A stretch of 15,276 nucleotides of DNA from a virus (Duplodnaviria; Heunggongvirae; Uroviricota; Caudoviricetes). Under the pieces are notes generated by a model. That model ran no database searches. It was given only the letters and a program-made list of their open reading frames with translations, and had not been told where the DNA came from. Positions within the stretch are counted from its first letter, which is position 1. The number at the start of each line of letters is the position of its first letter. Location of the stretch: IMG/VR virus record IMGVR_UViG_2687453449_000002. One strand, 5' to 3'. The position numbers and the translations under genes were made by a program. Positions 2,494 to 12,704 of this stretch are shown one piece after another.

Positions 2494-2605
2494 GCTGACC
2501 TCATTTCCCCTTAACGCCGGGGTAGCGGAACTGTTTGCTGAGAACACCGTGCGGTGTCTTGATGGAAAGTAATTTAGAATAACCTAACATGAGAGGCAAG
2601 TGTTT

Positions 2606-2627
2606 TTTGTTAGATTGATCTAACAAA
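2606..2627. promoter_or_regulatory. Operator-like palindrome in the dicB-operon promoter region (putative DicA site)
   Basis: Perfect inverted repeat tttgttagat-tg-atctaacaaa sharing the core GTTAGA-N4-TCTAAC with two sites in the dicA/dicC intergenic region; lies between the dicA stop and the ydfA start. Confidence 0.6.
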
Positions 2628-2661
2628 AAGGGTGGGCGCAACTAATCACTTGAAAAGAATG

Positions 2662-3069
2662 TTATTTTATTGATTTATTTTTACGCGCTTTAAGCATTTC
2701 TTCGAAGAGTTTGTTGAAGTTTTCTACTCTTGCGCGCATTTCAGACAGCAAGGCTTCCTGCTCGGAAGATGGAAGAGCATCGAATAATTCGATCAATTCT
2801 TTGTGGTTGGGAGTTAGCTCTGTTTCCACATGAAGTTCTTGTGCAGGCACTGGTGCCTTGTCTTCGTCACCAAACATTAGCCATGTAGGTGAGCACTTCA
2901 GAGCATCCGCTAAAGCAAACAATCGTTTTCCGACTGGCTGGGTTTCGTCTCTTTCCCATTGTGAAATTGTGACGTGAGCAACTCCAGCGAGGCGCGCAGC
3001 TTCTCGTTGTGTTAAGCGTAATTCTTTTCGTCGCGCCAGAACTCGCTGGCCTAGGGTTCTTGTATCCAT
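2662..3069 (-). CDS. dicA: HTH-XRE repressor DicA (cI-like), 135 aa
   Basis: N-terminal HTH (LRLTQREAARLAGVAHVTISQWERDETQP), the C-terminal segment MRARVENFNKLFEEMLKAR remembered from DicA, correct length, and divergent from a cro-like dicC. Confidence 0.85.
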   Translation of the reverse strand: MDTRTLGQRVLARRKELRLTQREAARLAGVAHVTISQWERDETQPVGKRLFALADALKCSPTWLMFGDEDKAPVPAQELHVETELTPNHKELIELFDALPSSEQEALLSEMRARVENFNKLFEEMLKARKNKSIK

Positions 3070-3149
3070 AGTTAGGTAATTCTAATTTTTCTTGACTTAG
3101 GTATCCCGCGCACAATAATGTTAGAAAAGTCTAACAAGAGGGGGCTTTG
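3070..3149. promoter_or_regulatory. dicA/dicC divergent promoter-operator region
   Basis: Two palindromes GTTAGG-taat-TCTAAT (3071-3086) and GTTAGA-aaag-TCTAAC (3120-3135); rightward promoter candidate TTGACT (3092-3097), 16-17 bp spacer, AATAAT/ATAATG (3114-3120), the second palindrome overlapping the -10/+1; GAGGGGG Shine-Dalgarno before dicC. Confidence 0.65.
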
Positions 3150-3377
3150 ATGCTTAAAGTTGACGCAATTACTTTTTTTGGCAGCAAAACAAAGCTTGCC
3201 AATGCCGCAGGAGTGAGACTGGCAAGTGTTGCTGCTTGGGGGATACTGGTTCCTGAAGGTCGCGCGATGCGTCTACAGGAGGCATCTGGCGGGGAGCTTC
3301 AGTATGATCCCAAAGTTTATGACGAATATCGTAAGACGAAGCGGGCGGGGCGGTTGAACAATGAAAATCACTCCTGA
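3150..3377 (+). CDS. dicC: Cro-like regulator DicC (75 aa from the ATG; the track ORF begins 3 nt earlier at TTG)
   Basis: MLKVDAITFFGSKTKLANAAGVRLASVAAWG...RLQEASGGELQYDPKVYDEYRKTKRAGRLNNENHS, recognised as DicC-like; divergent from dicA; Shine-Dalgarno 6 nt upstream of the ATG at 3150. Confidence 0.8.
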   Translation: MLKVDAITFFGSKTKLANAAGVRLASVAAWGILVPEGRAMRLQEASGGELQYDPKVYDEYRKTKRAGRLNNENHS

Positions 3378-3882
3378 ACAGGCTCGTGAGGCTCTGGATG
3401 CCTGGATATGTCGACCAGGAATGACACAGGAGCAGGCGACGATATTAATCACTGAAGCATTCTGGGCTTTGAAAGAGCGCCCGAACATCGATGTTCAGCG
3501 TGTCACATATGAAGGTGGCGCGGTTGATCAGCGAGCGCTTAGCGTTAATCGAGTGAAGATATTCGAACGCTGGAAGGCTATCGACACCAGGGATAAGCGT
3601 GAAAAGTTCACAGCGCTAGTGCCTGCAATTATGGAGGCTATCCGGATTAGTGATTTCAGGTTGTATCGTGAGATCAGTGATGGAAAAAGTATTACGTACA
3701 TGATCGCCGGGTTAAATAAAGAATATGGCGATGTGGTGGAATCCGGACTGCTTTTTGCAGATCCTGCCGTTGTAGATCGTGAAACTGACGAACTTATAGA
3801 AAAAGCAATTGCTTTCAAGCTTGCGTATCGACAGCAATACCAACAAAAAGCTGGATGGAATTATGAGTCTTCTTTTTGCTGA
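3361..3882 (+). CDS. cII-position early protein, possibly YdaT-family (173 aa)
   Basis: ORF immediately after the cro-like gene, with its start overlapping the dicC 3' end; family assignment is by position and weak recollection only. Confidence 0.5.
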   Translation: MKITPEQAREALDAWICRPGMTQEQATILITEAFWALKERPNIDVQRVTYEGGAVDQRALSVNRVKIFERWKAIDTRDKREKFTALVPAIMEAIRISDFRLYREISDGKSITYMIAGLNKEYGDVVESGLLFADPAVVDRETDELIEKAIAFKLAYRQQYQQKAGWNYESSFC

Positions 3883-4828
3883 ACGCCCACTGGTTATAAA
3901 CACGCAGCTGGCAATGAAAATCGGCTTAAACGAAGCCATTGTTTTGCAACAACTGCACTACTGGTTGAGAGATACCAACTCCGGTATGGAATGTGATGGT
4001 GTTCGCTGGATTTATAACACAACGGAACAATGGCTGGAACAGTTCCCATTCTGGTCAGAGTCAACGTTAAAGCGCGCGTTTGCAAGTCTGAAAACGCTGG
4101 GGCTTTTGCGTTGTGAAAAGCTCAATAAATCAAAGCGCGATATGACCAATTTCTACACGATCAACTATGGGAGCGAGCTTTTAGATGGTGGCAAATTGAA
4201 CGAATCCATCGGTTCAAAATGCGCCGCTCCATCAGGTCAAAATGACACGATGGAAGAGGTCAAAATGAAACGCTCCATTGGTTCAAAACGATCCAATGTC
4301 ATCGGGTCAAAATGGCCTGATGATCTTACAGAGAATACAACAGAGATTACTACAGAGAATAAAAACACTTTTCGTCCGGAAGCTTCGCAACCGGACCCGC
4401 AGACGACTGAACAGGATTTTTTAACCCGGAACTCCGACGCGGTTGTGTTTAGTGCGAAAAAACGCCAGTGGGGTAGCAGGGAGGATTTGGCGTGTGCGCA
4501 GTGGATCTGGGGGCGGATCGTGGGTCTCTACGAACAGGCAGCCAGTGATGATGGCGAGATCATGCGACCAAAAGAGCCTAACTGGACTGCCTGGGCCAAT
4601 GACGTGCGCACAATGCGGATGCTGGATGGCAGAAGCCACAGACAAATTTGCGAAATGTTTGGTCGGGTTCAGCGAGATCCATTCTGGGTAAAAAACATCA
4701 TGAGCCCGTCAAAGCTCCGCGAAAAATGGGACGAACTGGTCATCCGCCTGGGACGTTCACCTGTACAGCGTTGTGTTAATCATATTTCTGAACCGGATAC
4801 AGAAATTCCGCCTGGTTTCAGAGGATAA
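3863..4828 (+). CDS. Phage replication initiation protein (lambda O / YdaU-like replisome organiser), 321 aa
   Basis: N-terminal domain resembling replisome-organiser HTH (LNEAIVLQQLHYWLRDT...STLKRAFASLKTLGLLR), a central linker encoded by iteron DNA, and a distinct C-terminal domain; start chosen at ATG 3863 (MSLLFAERP), overlapping the upstream stop by 20 nt. Confidence 0.7.
   Translation: MSLLFAERPLVINTQLAMKIGLNEAIVLQQLHYWLRDTNSGMECDGVRWIYNTTEQWLEQFPFWSESTLKRAFASLKTLGLLRCEKLNKSKRDMTNFYTINYGSELLDGGKLNESIGSKCAAPSGQNDTMEEVKMKRSIGSKRSNVIGSKWPDDLTENTTEITTENKNTFRPEASQPDPQTTEQDFLTRNSDAVVFSAKKRQWGSREDLACAQWIWGRIVGLYEQAASDDGEIMRPKEPNWTAWANDVRTMRMLDGRSHRQICEMFGRVQRDPFWVKNIMSPSKLREKWDELVIRLGRSPVQRCVNHISEPDTEIPPGFRG
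4204..4314 (+). repeat. Five direct iterons (putative prophage replication origin) inside the replication initiator gene
   Basis: Core GGT(T)CAAAA(T/C)G ending at 4221, 4244, 4267, 4290 and 4314 (23-24 bp periodicity), several with a TCCATC prefix; followed by an A-rich ACAGAGA-repeat stretch (4315-4365); encodes IGSK peptide repeats. Confidence 0.65.
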
Positions 4829-7542: not shown

Positions 7543-7821
7543 ATGGCACGCAACGTAAAATATTACAATTCTGATAATTCGCCCGTTCTTGTCTGCACGC
7601 ACGAGCGGTATTCTCACGCATTCAAGTCTGAATGGTTCCAACACCCTCCATGCACTGAAGAGCAGGCTGAATGGATAATTCAGTGTTACCGCAGGCGCGG
7701 ATACGAGGTTAAGAAAGCCCTTAGTCTCGACTACCGTCACTGGATAATCTCAGTCAGATTGCCTTACTCCGAACGCCCACCGCGTCCGTCCCGTACATTC
7801 CAGCAACGCATCTGGAGGTAA
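7543..7821 (+). CDS. Hypothetical 92-aa protein; the C-terminal third may be out-of-context sequence at a deletion junction
   Basis: ATG preceded by GGAG; N-terminal 70 aa look protein-like (MARNVKYYNSDNSPVLVCTHERYSHAFKSEWFQHPPCTEEQAEWIIQCYRRRGYEV...), the tail is Pro/Arg-rich; same frame as the downstream lom fragment, separated from it by one stop. Confidence 0.4.
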   Translation: MARNVKYYNSDNSPVLVCTHERYSHAFKSEWFQHPPCTEEQAEWIIQCYRRRGYEVKKALSLDYRHWIISVRLPYSERPPRPSRTFQQRIWR

Positions 7822-8097
7822 CGTGCGGGTATTACTTCGACCTGTTCTGGTATGGCTTACAGCCGTGTGTCGACCTTCTCCGGGGATTATCTCCGCGTAA
7901 CTGACAACAAGGGGAAAACGCACGATGTGCTGACCGGAAGTGATGACGGTCGCCACAGCAACACGTCTCTGGCGTGGGGGGCTGGCGTGCAGTTTAACCC
8001 GACCGAATCCGTGGCCATTGACCTTGCTTATGAAGGTTCCGGCAGTGGTGACTGGCGCACTGACGGTTTCATCGTGGGTGTCGGTTATAAATTCTGA
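7822..8097 (+). pseudogene. lom: lom (Ail/Lom outer-membrane protein) 3' fragment lacking the N-terminal half
   Basis: Encodes ...SLAWGAGVQFNPTESVAIDLAYEGSGSGDWRTDGFIVGVGYKF, matching the C-terminal beta-strands of Lom/Ail/PagC; no signal peptide or N-terminal barrel portion upstream. Confidence 0.7.
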
Positions 8098-8123
8098 TTA
8101 GCCAGGTAACACAGTGTTATGAC

Positions 8124-8150
8124 AGCCCGCCGGTTCAGGCGGGCTTTTTT
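8124..8150 (+). terminator. Rho-independent terminator between the lom remnant and stf
   Basis: Stem agcccgcc / ggcgggct with a 6-nt loop, followed by tttttt. Confidence 0.8.
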
Positions 8151-8161
8151 GTGGAGTGGAT

Positions 8162-10540
8162 ATGGCAGCAGTAAAAATCTCAGGTGTGCTGAAAGATGGT
8201 GCGGGAAAACCAATACAGAACTGCACTATTCAACTGAAGGCAAAGCGTAACAGCACCACGGTACTGGTGAACACGGTAGCCTCTGAAAATCCGGATGAAG
8301 CCGGGCGTTACAGCATGGATGTCGAGTATGGCCAGTACAGCGTCACCCTGCTGGTTGAAGGTTTTCCGCCTTCACATGCCGGAACCATTACCGTCTATGA
8401 AGGTTCCAGACCTGGTACGCTGAATGATTTTCTCGGTGCCATGACGGAAGATGATGTCATGCCGGAGGCATTGCGTCGTTTTGAGGCAATGGTGGAAGAA
8501 GCAGCACGCAACGCTGAAGCCGCCTCTCAGAGCGCAGCGGCAGCAAAGAAATCAGAAACAGCAGCGGCATCATCGAAGAACGCGGCGAAAACCTCAGAAA
8601 CGCATGCAGCTAACAGCGCACAGGCGGCAGCGGCCTCGCAGACTGCATCGGCAAACTCCGCGACAGCAGCTAAAAAATCAGAAAACAACGCGAAAAATAG
8701 CGAGACAGCAGCAAAGACGAGCGAAACCAACGCAAAGTCCAGCCAGGCGGCAGCGAAAACAAGCGAAACGAATGCCAAAACCAGTGAAACTGCGGCGAAA
8801 AGCAGTCAGGCTGCAGCAGCCGAAAGCGAGAGTGCGGCAGCCGGTTCTGCGACTTCAGCAGCTGGATCAGCAACTGCTGCAGCTAACAGCCAGAAAGCAG
8901 CGAAGACGAGCGAAACTAACGCAAAGTCCAGCCAGACGGCAGCGAAGACCAGCGAAACGAATGCCAAAGCCAGCGAAACTGCGGCGAAAAACAGTCAGGA
9001 TGCAGCGGCCCAAAGCGAGAGTGCCGCAGCTGGTTCTGCAAGTGCGGCGGCTTCTTCTGCCACTGCATCAGCCAACAGTCAAAAAGCTGCAAAAACCAGT
9101 GAAACCAACGCAAAGGCGAGCGAGACTGCGGCGGCTAACTCGGCGAAAGCATCCGCTGCAAGCCAGACGGCTGCAAAAGCAAGTGAAGACGCAGCCAGAG
9201 AGTATGCAAGCCAGGCTGCGGAGCCGTATAAACAAGTTTTGCAGCCGCTTCCCGATGTGTGGATACCGTTTAACGATTCACTGGATATGCTTGCTGGCTT
9301 TTCGCCTGGTTATAAGCAAATAACTGTAGGTGATGATGTTATTAAAATGCCATCCGATAAGGTTGTTAGCTTCAAACGCGCATCAGGTGCAACATACATT
9401 AATAAATCAGGAGTATTAACCGTTGCTGAAGTTGACGAACCGCGATTTGAACGAGAAGGTTTGCTGATTGAAGGACAAAGAACCAACTATCATCTTAATT
9501 CACTTACGCCATCTAAGTGGGGAGCTACAACAAGTGTAACTATAACAGAAAGTGGTGTTGATGAGTTTGGCTTTACTTATGGGCGGTTTCAAATAAAGGA
9601 CGAAAAAATTGGGACAAATACGACAATGAATATCGCTGCGGTTTCAGGAGGAAGAGGTGTCGATGTTACTGGAACTGAAAAGTATGTTACAACATCATGT
9701 CGTGTAAAAAGCGATAGTGCTAATATACAATGTCGTATAAGATTTGAAAGATATGACGGGTCCGCATATTTTTATCTGGCAGATGCATATCTTAATATAA
9801 CAGATATGTCCATTAGGAAAACGGGAGGAGGGGCTGCAAGAATAACCGCCCGAGCGGAGAAAGAATCTAATGGATGGATTTATTTCGAGGTTACATATCA
9901 ATCTGAAGCTATTGATAATATGGTTGGCTCTCAGATCCAAATTGCTCCACCTGTTTCACCTGGAACTTATTTGGGCGGGGAATATTTGGATGTTACGACA
10001 CCACAATTTGAAGGCGGCTCATGCGCATCATCTTTTATCATTTCCGATACAGTTGCATCAACGCGAGCAAGCGATATTGTTACATTGCCTTGTAAAAATA
10101 ACATGGCCAGCAAACCTTTAACCTGCATGGTTGAAGTGAATAAAAATTGGTCTATAGCACCAAATTCCGCGCCTAGAATTTATGATATAACAGGATTTAA
10201 AACAAAAGACGACGCTTTTGTTTTTGCATTCAGAAATACAGCAGGTAGTGTAGGAACTCCATATGTTCAATTTGGTAATCCAATATCATTTCCACCTGGA
10301 AATTACCCAAGAAAGATTATCGCTGTATATAGAATAAAAAGCGATGGCAAGTTTCAGGCTGGCTGCAATGGGGTTTTATCAACACCAGCATCAACAACGT
10401 GGAAGAGTGTTAGTGGTGCTACAGGTATAAGGATTGGAGGCCAGACTACAGCCGGCTTACGTCATTTATTTGGTTATATCAGGAATTTTAGAATATGGCA
10501 TAAAGAATTAACCGATGCGCAAATGGGAGAGATAATATAA
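8162..10540 (+). CDS. Side tail fibre protein (Stf), mosaic: lambda-Stf-like N-terminal domain, Ala/Ser/Thr repeat shaft, divergent AT-rich C-terminal receptor-binding region (792 aa from ATG 8162)
   Basis: N-terminus MAAVKISGVLKDGAGKPIQNCTIQLKAKRNSTTVLVNTVASENPDEAGRYSMDVEYGQYSV... matches the remembered lambda Stf N-terminus; GGAG Shine-Dalgarno before ATG 8162 (the track ORF starts at GTG 8156); C-terminal end ...FGYIRNFRIWHKELTDAQMGEII resembles a LamG/ConA-like lectin domain. Confidence 0.9.
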   Translation: MAAVKISGVLKDGAGKPIQNCTIQLKAKRNSTTVLVNTVASENPDEAGRYSMDVEYGQYSVTLLVEGFPPSHAGTITVYEGSRPGTLNDFLGAMTEDDVMPEALRRFEAMVEEAARNAEAASQSAAAAKKSETAAASSKNAAKTSETHAANSAQAAAASQTASANSATAAKKSENNAKNSETAAKTSETNAKSSQAAAKTSETNAKTSETAAKSSQAAAAESESAAAGSATSAAGSATAAANSQKAAKTSETNAKSSQTAAKTSETNAKASETAAKNSQDAAAQSESAAAGSASAAASSATASANSQKAAKTSETNAKASETAAANSAKASAASQTAAKASEDAAREYASQAAEPYKQVLQPLPDVWIPFNDSLDMLAGFSPGYKQITVGDDVIKMPSDKVVSFKRASGATYINKSGVLTVAEVDEPRFEREGLLIEGQRTNYHLNSLTPSKWGATTSVTITESGVDEFGFTYGRFQIKDEKIGTNTTMNIAAVSGGRGVDVTGTEKYVTTSCRVKSDSANIQCRIRFERYDGSAYFYLADAYLNITDMSIRKTGGGAARITARAEKESNGWIYFEVTYQSEAIDNMVGSQIQIAPPVSPGTYLGGEYLDVTTPQFEGGSCASSFIISDTVASTRASDIVTLPCKNNMASKPLTCMVEVNKNWSIAPNSAPRIYDITGFKTKDDAFVFAFRNTAGSVGTPYVQFGNPISFPPGNYPRKIIAVYRIKSDGKFQAGCNGVLSTPASTTWKSVSGATGIRIGGQTTAGLRHLFGYIRNFRIWHKELTDAQMGEII
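8700..9200 (+). repeat. About 2.5 imperfect tandem copies of a ~189-bp (63-codon) unit within the stf shaft region
   Basis: Repeat starts near 8707, 8897 and 9083; encodes AAKTSETNAKSSQ...AAAGSA...ANSQK units; also creates spurious long ORFs in other frames. Confidence 0.8.
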
Positions 10541-10821
10541 TGCGAGATTTAATTATCAAATTCACAGACAAGGCCGACTTTTCGGCCTTTATGAAGAGTG
10601 CTGGCTATTATGATGACGAGTCGATGCAGGATGATATTCTTATTGACGTGATAGGTAACGTGTACAAAGAAACCGGAGAACTTACTGAAGATGGCGAGCC
10701 GGTATGTGTTAAGGAAGACGGATATTTTGTAAACGTGCGCATCATTAATGATGCAAAAAAATCGTCAATATTCGATAAATACGCGGTTGTTGTTGAGCAT
10801 CAACTTCGTGGCTGGATGTGA
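10540..10821 (+). CDS. Hypothetical acidic 93-aa protein downstream of stf (possible tail fibre accessory protein)
   Basis: ATG overlaps the stf stop (TAATG); AT-rich like the stf 3' region, suggesting co-acquisition; no family recognised. Confidence 0.5.
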   Translation: MRDLIIKFTDKADFSAFMKSAGYYDDESMQDDILIDVIGNVYKETGELTEDGEPVCVKEDGYFVNVRIINDAKKSSIFDKYAVVVEHQLRGWM

Positions 10822-10830
10822 GGCAGGAAA

Positions 10831-11535
10831 ATGGCTACATCGACAGTAATTCCAGGAGATATCACCAAGCTAAAGGGGGATGTCAGTAAAGCTAAGGAAG
10901 ATATTTCATCAATTAGCAGAAAAGTATCAACGCTTCAGACTGAGATGACCAGTGCAAAGCAGGATATCAGCTCCAGATACACAAAAACTGAAGTTGATAA
11001 TAAGCTGAAAAACAAAGTGGAAGTGAACGATCTGGAAAGTGGTCGTTATGGCGGAGATTTTTATCCACTGACAGGTCGTGAAGCGTTTTATTTATGGAAT
11101 TTGGCCACGACTACAGCGGCGGCAAACCTTTATCTTAATCCTGACCCTGCAATTTCGTCTGTGCTGCGGTCAACATCGTCTATCCGCTATAAACATTCAG
11201 TAGAGACAATAGATTCAGAGCACGCCGATCTCATTTTCAGGATGCGCCCTGTGTGGTACAGGTCGCAATGCGAAAATGACAGGCGTGACTGGGGATTCTA
11301 CGGATTGATTGCCGAGGAAGTAGGAGAAATTGCTCCTCAGTTTGTACACTGGCGACCAGCTAACGAAGATGATGCTCCTGAAGCTATTTCCAGCAATGGC
11401 CTTGTTGCCGAAGGTGTAATGTACGAACGTCTGGTTGTTCCACTGATTCACCATATCCAGAAACTGACTGAAAGAGTTGATGAACTTGAGTCAGAATTAA
11501 AGTTGTTATTAACTTCCCGAAGCGATATTAGATAA
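10831..11535 (+). CDS. 234-aa protein with a C-terminal peptidase-S74-like intramolecular chaperone domain and an N-terminal coiled-coil-like segment
   Basis: C-terminal half ...SSIRYKHSVETIDSEHADLIFRMRPVWY...GFYGLIAEEVGEIAPQFV...LVAEGVMYERLVVPLIHHIQKLTERVDELESELK fits the remembered S74 pattern (Ser ... Lys dyad, GxIAQEV-like motif, terminal helix); GAGG Shine-Dalgarno 7 nt upstream. Confidence 0.6.
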   Translation: MATSTVIPGDITKLKGDVSKAKEDISSISRKVSTLQTEMTSAKQDISSRYTKTEVDNKLKNKVEVNDLESGRYGGDFYPLTGREAFYLWNLATTTAAANLYLNPDPAISSVLRSTSSIRYKHSVETIDSEHADLIFRMRPVWYRSQCENDRRDWGFYGLIAEEVGEIAPQFVHWRPANEDDAPEAISSNGLVAEGVMYERLVVPLIHHIQKLTERVDELESELKLLLTSRSDIR

Positions 11536-11545
11536 AGGAGGAGTA

Positions 11546-11839
11546 ATGGATATAACACCTTTTCTTCATGCGCTTTGTGCTGTGGCTGCGCAGACACTGG
11601 TTGGTCTTTTTACCGGAAACTGGGCTTATGGGGCGATAGCTGGTTGTACGTTCTTCATTGCGCGTGAACACACCCAGGCAGAATATCGCTGGATTGAAAT
11701 GTTCGGGCATGGCAAGCGGATTAACATGCCGTGGTGGGGCGGTTTTGATCCGCGTGTTTGGGATGTGGCAAGCCTGATGGATTTTGCTGTGCCGGTGGTG
11801 GCGTGTCTGCTGATCTGGCTGTTGGTTAATCGTGGGTGA
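11546..11839 (+). CDS. Hypothetical 97-aa hydrophobic protein, probably membrane-associated
   Basis: Strong AAGGAGG Shine-Dalgarno immediately upstream; two hydrophobic stretches (ALCAVAAQTLVGLF and FAVPVVACLLIWLLV). Confidence 0.6.
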   Translation: MDITPFLHALCAVAAQTLVGLFTGNWAYGAIAGCTFFIAREHTQAEYRWIEMFGHGKRINMPWWGGFDPRVWDVASLMDFAVPVVACLLIWLLVNRG

Positions 11840-11849
11840 AAAAAGGTGA

Positions 11850-11969
11850 GCTGTATATGCAACGGAGGAAGAAACCCCGTTGCTGGAAGCCAGGAAAAAG
11901 TATCGGGTGTTGCTGAACCGTGTTGATACGTCAACTGCACAGGATATTGAATGGCCAGCACTGCCGTAG
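11850..11969 (+). pseudogene. tfa: 3' remnant (last ~39 codons) of a tail fibre assembly gene (tfa)
   Basis: Frame encodes [39 protein letters not shown]-stop, matching the conserved C-terminus of Tfa/Mu U-type assembly proteins; no start codon or N-terminal region; sits right before the pin 3' end. Confidence 0.7.
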
Positions 11970-12066
11970 GGTAAAACATATAAATTCTATAATTAGATGT
12001 ATCTTTCCATTTACGGCAAGGAAGGGGGCTTGGAAGACGTAAAGCATCTCACACCGAGATTATTTT

Positions 12067-12657
12067 TTATATGTCAGGTGTCTGAAGTTTTGCTTTGGCT
12101 CTTAAAATGGTTTGCCGCGAGGTTTTGAATTCCCGGGCAATGGCACTTATACTTACACCTGACTTAATCCGTTCGAATACCACCTGTTTCTGTTCTTCAT
12201 TTAACACAGGTGGTCGACCAAAACGTTTCCCTGCGCCCCGGGCTCTTACTATCCCGGAATGAGTGCGTTCAAGTAAAAGGTCTCGTTCAAATTCAGCGAC
12301 TGCTGAAATTACTTGCATCATCATTTTTCCTGTTGGACTGGTCAGGTCAATGCCCCCCAATGCTAAGCAATGCACTCTGATACCTGTTTCGGTCAGTTGT
12401 TCCACTGTTTTCCTGATATCCATTGCATTACAACCAAGGCGATCCAATTTTGTCACAATCAATTGATCACCACATTTCAGGCGAGCAAGCAACCGGTTAA
12501 AACCAGGACGCTCACTGGTTGCTGCTGAGCCGCTAATGTGTTCTTCGATTATTTGCTGAGGTTTGATTTTAAAACCTGCACTTTCGATTTCCCGGCGTTG
12601 ATTTTCGGTGGTCTGATCCAGCGTTGATATCCGACAGTAAGCAAAAATTCGAGACAT
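12067..12657 (-). CDS. pinQ: Serine recombinase, Pin-family DNA invertase (196 aa)
   Basis: [20 protein letters not shown]... with the catalytic Ser in YCRISTLDQ, a resolvase/invertase catalytic core and a C-terminal HTH ([17 protein letters not shown]); convergent with stf/tfa, as in Qin and Rac. Confidence 0.9.
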
Positions 12658-12704
12658 AGTGAGACTCTATACGAAATTGGTGTTCATATCATAATGCATC
12701 TCAG

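Follow-up and report, generated by a model that had tools for sequence, protein, structure and literature searches.

The DNA analysed here is a stretch of 15,276 nucleotides (nt) deposited as IMG/VR virus record IMGVR_UViG_2687453449_000002 and referred to, in its whole length, as the window. It carries a side tail fibre gene, stf, in which an N-terminal part of the lambda type is followed by a C-terminal part of other base composition and other relationships. We regard it as probable that stf encodes a modular lambda-type fibre, the distal part of which was swapped for a lectin-type module together with a two-gene fibre cassette. The open reading frame (ORF) of stf, its subdivisions and its neighbours are the following, in window coordinates and with lengths of proteins in amino acids (aa).

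8124 to 8145, plus strand: terminator-like GC hairpin followed by a run of T, where the lom remnant ends and shortly before stf
8162 to 10540, plus strand: stf, intact side tail fibre ORF, 792 aa and a stop codon, matching PHROG 1419 over its full length
8168 to 8557, plus strand: lambda-type N-terminal anchor of stf, residues 3–132 (Pfam PF08400, phage_tail_N)
8558 to 9241, plus strand: GC-rich Ala/Ser/Thr shaft with families of 21-nt repeats (7 aa, KTSETNA-like); GC content 0.561
9242 to 9496, plus strand: start of the AT-rich module, with the recombination joint (LQPLPDVWIPFNDSLDM) and about 85 strongly conserved aa (residues 361–445)
9497 to 10069, plus strand: predicted first beta-sandwich domain of the lectin or gene-transfer-agent head-spike-fibre type, about residues 446–636
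10070 to 10537, plus strand: predicted second, C-terminal beta-rich domain of the LamG or 'galectin-like' type, about residues 637–792, with a variable middle and 36 conserved residues at the end
10540 to 10821, plus strand: orf93, small alpha/beta protein, sharing one base with the stf stop codon (TAATG); PHROG 1361
10831 to 11535, plus strand: orf234, predicted short fibre protein with an N-terminal tag (MATSTVIPGDITKLK), a coiled coil, a small tip and a C-terminal S74 chaperone
11546 to 11839, plus strand: orf97, small hydrophobic protein and last gene of the block; PHROG 1443; GC content 0.526
11859 to 11969, plus strand: 3' remnant of tfa (111 nt, 91% identical to the 3' end of lambda tfa), the right-hand joint of the replaced block
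12067 to 12657, minus strand: pinQ, serine invertase (Pfam Resolvase and HTH_7; annotated as pinQ)

The reading frame of stf begins at 8156 (GTG) or 8162 (ATG) and ends at 10540, its 792 aa being counted from the ATG. Residues 2–792 match positions 1–793 of the PHROG 1419 profile ('tail protein') with 1325 bits, and the E. coli C protein bears the RefSeq name 'prophage tail fiber N-terminal domain-containing protein'. PF08400, the family of the lambda-type Stf anchor, covers residues 3–132 (E = 1e-66; 223.5 bits against a cut-off of 26.6), and this domain is 58–61% identical to those of lambda orf-401 and K-12 StfR. The alignment with lambda orf-401 spans stf residues 3–344 and the one with StfR residues 3–352, both at 58% identity, which agrees with a first-pass annotation of the window that had drawn the lambda-Stf-like, GC-rich part up to about codon 360. 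Past residue 352, no alignment with lambda orf-401, orf-314, StfR or StfQ was obtained. The C-terminal part (residues 360–792), previously described as unrelated to lambda Stf, is indeed without alignment to lambda Stf, StfR and StfQ, and of the Tfa chaperone gene only the 111-nt remnant is present. In the BLASTP comparisons, composition adjustment fully hid the 58%-identical, 350-residue N-terminal alignment of stf with StfR because of the Ala/Ser-rich bias, and an unadjusted run restored it. Composition-adjusted negatives in the Ala-rich part are unreliable; the negative for residues 360–792 was the same in both modes. Automated comparisons of fibre shafts call for caution over this adjustment.

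The GC content, taken in sliding frames of 300 nt, lies at 0.52–0.57 from 7950 to 9300 and at 0.36–0.42 from 9300 to 11100. A maximum-likelihood fit of two segments places the change point at nt 9226 (log-likelihood gain 28.6), and the similarity to other phages described below starts at nt 9242; the earlier estimate of AT-rich DNA from about position 9300 is borne out. Segment 8162–9241 has a GC content of 0.546 and a GC content at third codon positions (GC3) of 0.483, compared with 0.400 and 0.266 in segment 9242–10537, and the non-repetitive N-terminal domain by itself (8162–8557) shows 0.520 and 0.485. The Ala-rich repeats do not create this step, for it is stronger at third codon positions, and the N-terminal domain, which is not repetitive, has normal GC content. 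Downstream, the GC content is 0.409 in orf93 and 0.439 in orf234. The AT-rich composition that had been noted for the 93-aa ORF overlapping the stf stop codon is confirmed, though it is less extreme at GC3 (0.430). Uniform GC content and full-length homology of the C-terminal part to lambda Stf, StfR or StfQ were both looked for, and neither was found. In all six phage backgrounds examined and in 75 IMG/VR loci, the module has a GC content of 0.40–0.44. The corresponding locus of the T5-like phage IrisVonRoten (Bas32), at 0.39, is near the module in this respect, whereas the lambdoid shaft, at 0.55, is far off.

The motif LQPLPDVWIPF at nt 9242 lies right at the composition step, and the module opens with the same invariant motif (QPLPDVWIPFNDSLDM) in every N-terminal background. 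The segment that carries it (9242–9496) has the lowest column entropy of the module, residues P6–M20 of the fragment being invariant. From nt 9242 to 10187 the DNA is 86.9% identical to the gene of the lateral tail fibre gp22 of IrisVonRoten, and nt 9250–10090 are 88–90% identical to IrisVonRoten and several further T5-like phages. At the protein level, identity to gp22 amounts to about 96% over residues 357–636 and about 50% over the last 150 residues. The 10.8-kb IrisVonRoten locus holds just two other matches to the window, both short and weak (146 nt and 90 nt, about 74%). The module is carried by more than 2,400 database proteins, and the same joint is found behind N-terminal regions of the P2, T1 and T5 types. 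Unrelated N-termini that precede it comprise the lambda type (PF08400), the P2 gpH type (PF12571 and PF03406), a T1-like region without a Pfam domain, and Queuovirinae fibres. Horizontal exchange of the module, which the first-pass annotation had suggested for the C-terminal cassette, is well supported. Outside lambdoid phages, its closest relatives are genes for lateral tail fibres in T5-like phages, and a donor of that group, or one with similarly AT-rich DNA, is plausible. Two short database records are also about 90% identical to the module, OR849447.1 ('Listeria phage LM 4-14-1'; 1,628 bp) and OR850771.1 ('Salmonella phage S.Inf 5-2'; 4,002 bp); the Listeria label of the former in particular looks like a contaminant or a mislabelled fragment.

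The module is predicted to consist of two beta-sandwich domains behind the conserved joint segment. Residues 435–636 match the NCBIfam family NF048003, the head spike fibre domain of gene transfer agents, above its cut-off (profile positions 1–181 of 182; 51.7 bits against 36). A profile built from 35 homologues reached the capsule-binding head spike fibre Rcc01080 of the Rhodobacter gene transfer agent RcGTA (6tb9_F3) among PDB sequences with E = 1.2e-9, and a single-sequence search of the module against PDB chains found nothing, Rcc01080 being reached only via the profile. For the C-terminal end, the Pfam family Laminin_G_3 (PF13385) matches residues 717–787 with E = 5.8e-5 and 23.7–25.0 bits against a gathering score of 27.6. 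The same family matches 16 of the 35 homologues at E <= 0.01 (best E = 9.7e-6). For the module, structure prediction gives a jelly-roll beta-sandwich resembling structures of ConA-like lectins, LamG domains, pentraxins and carbohydrate-binding modules, with a predicted local distance difference test score (pLDDT) of 45–74 in the second domain (residues about 637–792). The LamG/ConA-like end proposed earlier is thus matched by the predicted fold, with the Laminin_G_3 match staying below its gathering score. The firmer domain assignment is that of residues 435–636 to the head-spike-fibre family rather than that of the LamG end.

Along the module, residues 357–446, 617–676 and 757–792 are conserved and residues 447–616 and 677–756 are variable. 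Comparison with the lambdoid phage PhiR49_1 gives a similar picture at the DNA level: 7849–9581 are 90% identical, 9582–10432 have diverged, and 10433–11956 are 92.5% identical, this right part comprising the last 36 stf codons together with orf93, orf234 and orf97. The exchanged block is itself a mosaic, with a variable part (9582–10432) and a conserved part (10433–11956). Variable lectin-type domains between conserved joints are the pattern expected of a host-range determinant. On the right-hand side, the window is 98.9% identical to the Qin prophage of K-12 from nt 11858 on, and in K-12 stfQ-tfaQ occupies the position instead. At the matching positions of E. coli REL606, BL21 and C, the Prokaryotic Genome Annotation Pipeline (PGAP) records a 'tail fiber assembly protein, missing N-terminus'. 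The swapped block extends to about nt 11857, with its right joint inside the 3' end of tfa. The interval 9250–10821 of the first-pass annotation is too short, the exchanged unit running through orf234 and orf97.

The genes behind the module recur with it. Gene order was counted in 80 IMG/VR loci, 77 of which have an intact ORF for a module-bearing fibre. An ORF of 92–93 aa overlaps the fibre stop codon in 71 of these 77; a further ORF follows the small gene after 10–11 nt in 69 of the 71, and its product starts with the tag M[AV]TxT[VI]IPxDI in 68 of the 69. Contig ends (three loci) and five loci in which both downstream genes are missing account for the drops from 77 to 71 and 71 to 69. Tagged proteins of 234 and 346 aa are the most frequent. 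The three-gene set (module fibre, gene of 92–93 aa, tagged fibre), which is the order of the IrisVonRoten genes gp22 to gp24, is present in the window as well as in T5-like, T1-like and Queuovirinae phages and in a P2-like prophage. The order stf-orf93-orf234-orf97 also occurs in the lambdoid phage PhiR49_1, the genome of which was deposited as complete and has J and lom ahead of these genes. The 3' part of stf with orf93 and orf234 (and orf97 in lambdoid phages) forms a portable cassette, found behind at least four kinds of fibre N-terminus.

The P2-like prophage (locus L006) deserves separate mention. Its tagged protein (303 aa; MATVTTIPADITNLK...; 2557–3468) has a tip of the P2/Mu type and is followed by a gene for a Caudo_TAP chaperone (3472–3999). 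The same N-terminal tag is joined to two folding systems, either an S74 intramolecular chaperone or a separate Tfa.

Gene orf234 encodes the tagged protein of the window. Its C-terminal part belongs to the S74 family (Pfam PF13884, residues 116–172; 27.5 bits, with the cut-off at 22) and is similar to the C-terminus of LtfA of phage DT57C (PDB 8hqz_d; E = 2.7e-6); the C-terminus of PHROG 3299 was matched as well. In an alignment of five sequences with lambdoid, T1-like, Queuovirinae and T5-like homologues, the tag and the residues S116 and K121 are invariant. Serine and lysine five residues apart at the start of an S74 domain are presumably the self-cleavage or catalytic pair, as in endosialidase and in pb1 of T5. 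After the predicted self-cleavage at Ser116, the mature protein would retain about 115 residues, i.e. the tag, the coiled coil and the small tip. We considered whether orf234 might be a local deletion product of a longer fibre gene and rejected this, the 234-aa class recurring in many loci and in the PhiR49_1 genome. As PhiR49_1 has the same four genes, orf234 is a normal allele and not a local deletion.

Gene orf93 encodes a small protein that is 40% identical to gp23 of IrisVonRoten. Its AlphaFold2 model (pLDDT 82) is a confident alpha/beta fold; comparison with known structures gave no informative fold match, and sequence searches against PDB chains gave only noise. The family is small, with 81 clusters among 1.84 billion representative proteins, and nearly all of its members stand alone. 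Fusions to other domains were sought among the same 1.84 billion proteins; the few long matches are PKD or TPR repeat proteins with several weak stretches and were judged spurious.

Based on this dataset, we hypothesize the following mode of assembly. The stf product is a lambda-type side fibre, presumably trimeric, in which an anchor and a repeat shaft are followed by a distal module open to exchange; its distal third was replaced by recombination at the conserved joint LQPLPDVWIPF at nt 9242. The incoming block would start with the module of about 435 aa and its two lectin-type beta-sandwich domains. Homology to Rcc01080, together with the analogy to O-antigen recognition by T5-like lateral fibres, makes a surface polysaccharide such as O-antigen or capsule the most likely ligand of the module. 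Probably it is also the socket for the small fibre protein encoded two genes downstream. This protein, orf234, with the tag MATxTVIPxDI, would fold by means of the S74 chaperone at its C-terminus, for which self-cleavage at Ser116 is expected. We infer for orf93 a role as connector or assembly factor that would help to make or stabilise the junction of stf with orf234. The tag is kept across phages with unrelated tails, so its partner should be a shared component, i.e. the module or orf93. The module is unlikely to be the sole receptor-binding part, and the most distal position may not be its own either. Behind it, a conserved gene codes for a distinct small fibre protein that has an intramolecular chaperone domain, and in IrisVonRoten the homologue of the module-bearing protein has been modelled as a proximal fibre with a distal one attached. 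In this respect the first-pass annotation, which had described the module as receptor-binding, is refined; its main points all hold. The strict linkage of the module, the gene of 92–93 aa and the tag over five phage groups suggests a common plug-and-socket for two-part fibres. More tentatively, and with somewhat less than even confidence, we propose that the module (from QPLPDVWIPF to LamG), the small protein and the tag MATxTVIPxDI form one universal plug-and-socket for an interchangeable second fibre across coliphages; the protein of 92–93 aa would then represent a previously uncharacterised class of fibre connector or assembly factor.

Several points weigh against this interpretation. Composition alone can give neither the direction of transfer nor the donor lineage. 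At the C-terminal end, where Laminin_G_3 stays under the Pfam gathering score, the LamG assignment is reasonable but not established by sequence. The AlphaFold2 model of the module was calculated for a monomer and has a mean pLDDT of 61.7, with the first 85 residues and much of the last domain poorly modelled, and a socket is not visible in it. In BASEL genome annotations, homologues of orf234 are labelled 'putative lateral tail fiber chaperone' and not fibre. Five loci, probably of one lineage, have the module with neither orf93 nor a tagged fibre, and orf97 follows Stf directly there; the module can therefore stand alone, and docking of a second fibre is not obligatory. Finally, any function in this particular genome is hypothetical, given that the tail genes are deleted. 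The lambdoid lineage with the module only (L082 and L084 to L087) encodes Stf proteins of 687–688 aa, and at least L084 and L087 have a cdtB-like gene (MKKLLFLLMILPGISFADLSDFKVATWNLQGSN...) 1.5–2 kb downstream.

The best-surviving alternative, which we nevertheless consider unlikely, takes the module alone as the full receptor-binding tip, with orf234 as a chaperone acting in trans on Stf (the role of Tfa) and orf93 as a second chaperone. The labels 'putative lateral tail fiber chaperone' and 'chaperone of endosialidase' in several phage genomes are in its favour, as are the S74 chaperone domain that makes up half of orf234, the position of the cassette where tfa sits in K-12 Qin and lambda, and the five loci that have the module without orf93 and orf234. 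However, S74 domains are known to serve, in cis, the part of the chain that precedes them and to be released by cleavage afterwards, and orf234 has a coiled coil and a tip of its own ahead of the conserved Ser/Lys pair. Longer alleles of the tagged protein (346, 351 and 574 aa) bear full receptor-binding regions. The tagged protein of the P2-type locus, with its P2/Mu-type tip and its own Caudo_TAP chaperone encoded downstream, is thus the client of a chaperone and not a chaperone itself. Gene product gp24 of IrisVonRoten, which bears the same tag, has been modelled as a T-shaped distal fibre (PMC11990801). We rate a chaperone in trans lower because the long tagged alleles are clearly fibres, one of them with a separate chaperone gene, and we continue to regard orf234 as a probable second fibre on a modular Stf.

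A further question is why the cassette is still present in the window. From nt 7849 to its end, the window shares 99.8–100% identity with E. coli C and the B strains REL606 and BL21 over the cryptic prophage Qin and the DNA on its right, this stretch running from the lom remnant through stf, pinQ, ydfK and ynfT to ydfJ; to the left of nt 7849, the window matches the early region of the same Qin prophage (rem, hokD). The window thus represents Qin, a cryptic prophage without its tail genes, from a B-type strain of E. coli. Compared with E. coli C and the B strains, 5,014 bp are absent, with a junction at 7849–7852 and a 4-bp overlap. The missing DNA lies between a 92-aa ORF after rem and the middle of lom (L003 3586–8599) and contains a DUF968 pseudogene, the antiterminator gene Q, a lipocalin gene, IS3, a remnant of J and the 5' half of lom; the deletion was seen in none of the best complete genomes among the matches listed. 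The 3' half of lom (window 7849–8097), which matches lom of E. coli C and REL606, stands directly upstream of stf. The position of stf after J and lom is that of the lambdoid tail module, J itself being deleted in the window, and no tail tube, tape-measure or J genes are left near stf. The hairpin at 8124–8145 is the sole terminator-like site within 7800–12700. With the tail genes of the prophage gone, the stf cassette of the window does not provide a working fibre; it is a relic that might serve as a donor in recombination. In laboratory B strains, stf has been inactivated separately, by a 1-bp frameshift indel in REL606 (three fragments in PGAP) and by an IS3-associated N-terminal truncation in BL21(DE3).

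Retention of the cassette for its usefulness, either to the host as an adhesin or part of a tailocin-like particle or as a reservoir from which infecting phages are rescued, appears to us more doubtful still than a chaperone in trans. Although the tail genes are lost, stf retains an intact reading frame here and in E. coli C, and the segment occurs at >=99% identity in 80 E. coli records; a study reportedly documents, in general, recombination of infecting phages with defective prophages at tail fibre genes. On the other hand, the frameshift of REL606 and the IS3 truncation of BL21(DE3) suggest little constraint in the B lineage, and genes for J, tape measure and tube are nowhere nearby. It is highly improbable, finally, that the gene is old and vertically inherited and that amino-acid content and selection account for the composition step, Ala-rich repeats requiring GC-rich codons and beta-sandwich domains preferring AT-rich ones: the extremely Ala/Ser/Thr-rich shaft does lift GC at first and second positions, and the module is present in very many lambdoid prophages, yet GC3 also falls from 0.48 to 0.27 (0.485 in the non-repetitive N-terminal domain), module DNA is 87–90% identical to T5-like phages with little else matching in the IrisVonRoten locus, the module is joined to at least four unrelated N-terminal regions, and in K-12 Qin the position is taken by a different pair, stfQ-tfaQ, the joint falling within tfa.

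The remaining features concern the shaft and the genes to the right. Within the shaft, a tandem duplication of 189 nt (8696–8884 and 8885–9073) is 85% identical between its two copies. A periodicity of 21 nt extends over 8539–9187, with an AT skew of up to +0.65 (A far above T on the coding strand), and a 290-aa Arg/Gln-rich ORF in another frame (8451–9323) is a by-product of the shaft repeats. Gene orf97 is about 95% identical in many lambdoid phages, including phage 21, and is possibly a moron or an exclusion gene. The invertase gene pinQ lies 230 nt from the cassette. An invertible segment beside it was sought; only short inverted repeats at chance level were found, and no crossover site resembling gix. 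An alternative fibre end between orf97 and pinQ was considered as well, and there is no room for one. As in K-12 Qin, pinQ of the window appears to be an orphan.

That lambdoid, P2, Mu, T-even and T5-like phages exchange tail-fibre modules is long established, and mosaic tail fibre genes in cryptic prophages are textbook knowledge. For the window itself, a modular Stf with a swapped distal part is a real but ordinary case of such exchange. Its practical value lies in the map of exchange points, with a left joint at LQPLPDVWIPF, a right joint at the 3' end of tfa and an internal variable lectin block; boundaries of this kind are used in the engineering of host range of lambda-type particles. 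Beyond routine, the linkage of the module with the two genes behind it provides a testable assembly hypothesis for branched fibres and a role for the small protein. The architecture as such is already known from PHROG 1419, from proteins named in RefSeq, from sequenced lambdoid phage genomes and from the 2025 BASEL paper (PMC11990801).

Among known systems, lambda Stf/Tfa and the K-12 pairs StfR/TfaR and StfQ/TfaQ share with the window the PF08400 anchor, the Ala/Ser/Thr shaft, the position after lom and the 3' end of tfa beside a pin invertase. In contrast to these, stf of the window has no similarity to them after residue 352 and is without an intact tfa, and in place of their distal part it has the lectin-type module, orf93 and a fibre protein with an S74 domain of its own. 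Phages of the lambdoid group that carry PHROG 1419, i.e. PhiR49_1, IdasGreatGrand, 2G7b, Tritos and HannyBb, have the same architecture over the full length. They are deposited as complete phage genomes, whereas the copy of the window lies in a prophage without tail genes, and PhiR49_1 has another allele of the variable lectin region (9582–10432).

Rcc01080 (GhsB, NF048003) is a beta-rich, lectin-like protein of two domains, and fluorescently tagged Rcc01080 binds capsulated cells far better than capsule-less cells (PMC10218006; PMC7296036). Its likeness to the module comprises a homologous first beta-sandwich region and the beta-rich, lectin-like architecture of two domains. Its role in the binding of surface polysaccharide has been demonstrated (PMC10218006), and binding by the domain in the window is predicted. 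Furthermore, Rcc01080 is a monomer of 325 aa that sits on the capsid vertex via a short N-terminal peptide, and the domain in the window ends the shaft of an enterobacterial tail fibre.

The proteins LtfA and LtfB of phages DT57C and DT571/2, as far as they are described in the sections of the two papers covered here, provide a parallel in that a proximal fibre attached to the tail bears a second fibre via the N-terminal segment of the latter (PMC4728585, PMC10713586). A further likeness is the C-terminus of DT57C LtfA, which resembles the chaperone domain of orf234 (8hqz_d, E = 2.7e-6). According to the same sections, however, the connection is made by an adaptor pair like gp14/gp15 of phiEco32 and not by the QPLPDVWIPF module with a MATxTVIP tag, and a 92-aa gene does not figure in them.

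The closest parallel to the proposed two-part fibre is the gp22-gp23-gp24 set of the Tequintavirus IrisVonRoten, presented in the papers on the BASEL collection (PMC8594841, PMC11990801). It has the same module (87% DNA identity over 946 nt), a 92-aa gp23 gene that overlaps the stop codon of the fibre gene, and gp24 ten nucleotides later. The latter shares with orf234 the first 15 residues (MVTKTVIPTDITKLK compared with MATSTVIPGDITKLK) and the C-terminal intramolecular chaperone. Differences lie in the N-terminal anchor, which is of the T5 type and not of the lambda type, in the last lectin-like domain and the small protein, which are divergent alleles, and in gp24, which is T-shaped with two receptor-binding domains and 574 aa, compared with only about 115 mature residues predicted for orf234. 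AlphaFold-Multimer modelling presents gp22 as a proximal fibre that bears the distal fibre gp24; the BASEL authors term the protruding end of gp22 'galectin-like' and see in it a possible additional receptor-binding domain (PMC11990801). In T5-like phages, O-antigen is recognised by lateral fibres (PMC8594841), and IrisVonRoten overcomes the O16 O-antigen barrier (PMC11990801, PMC8594841).

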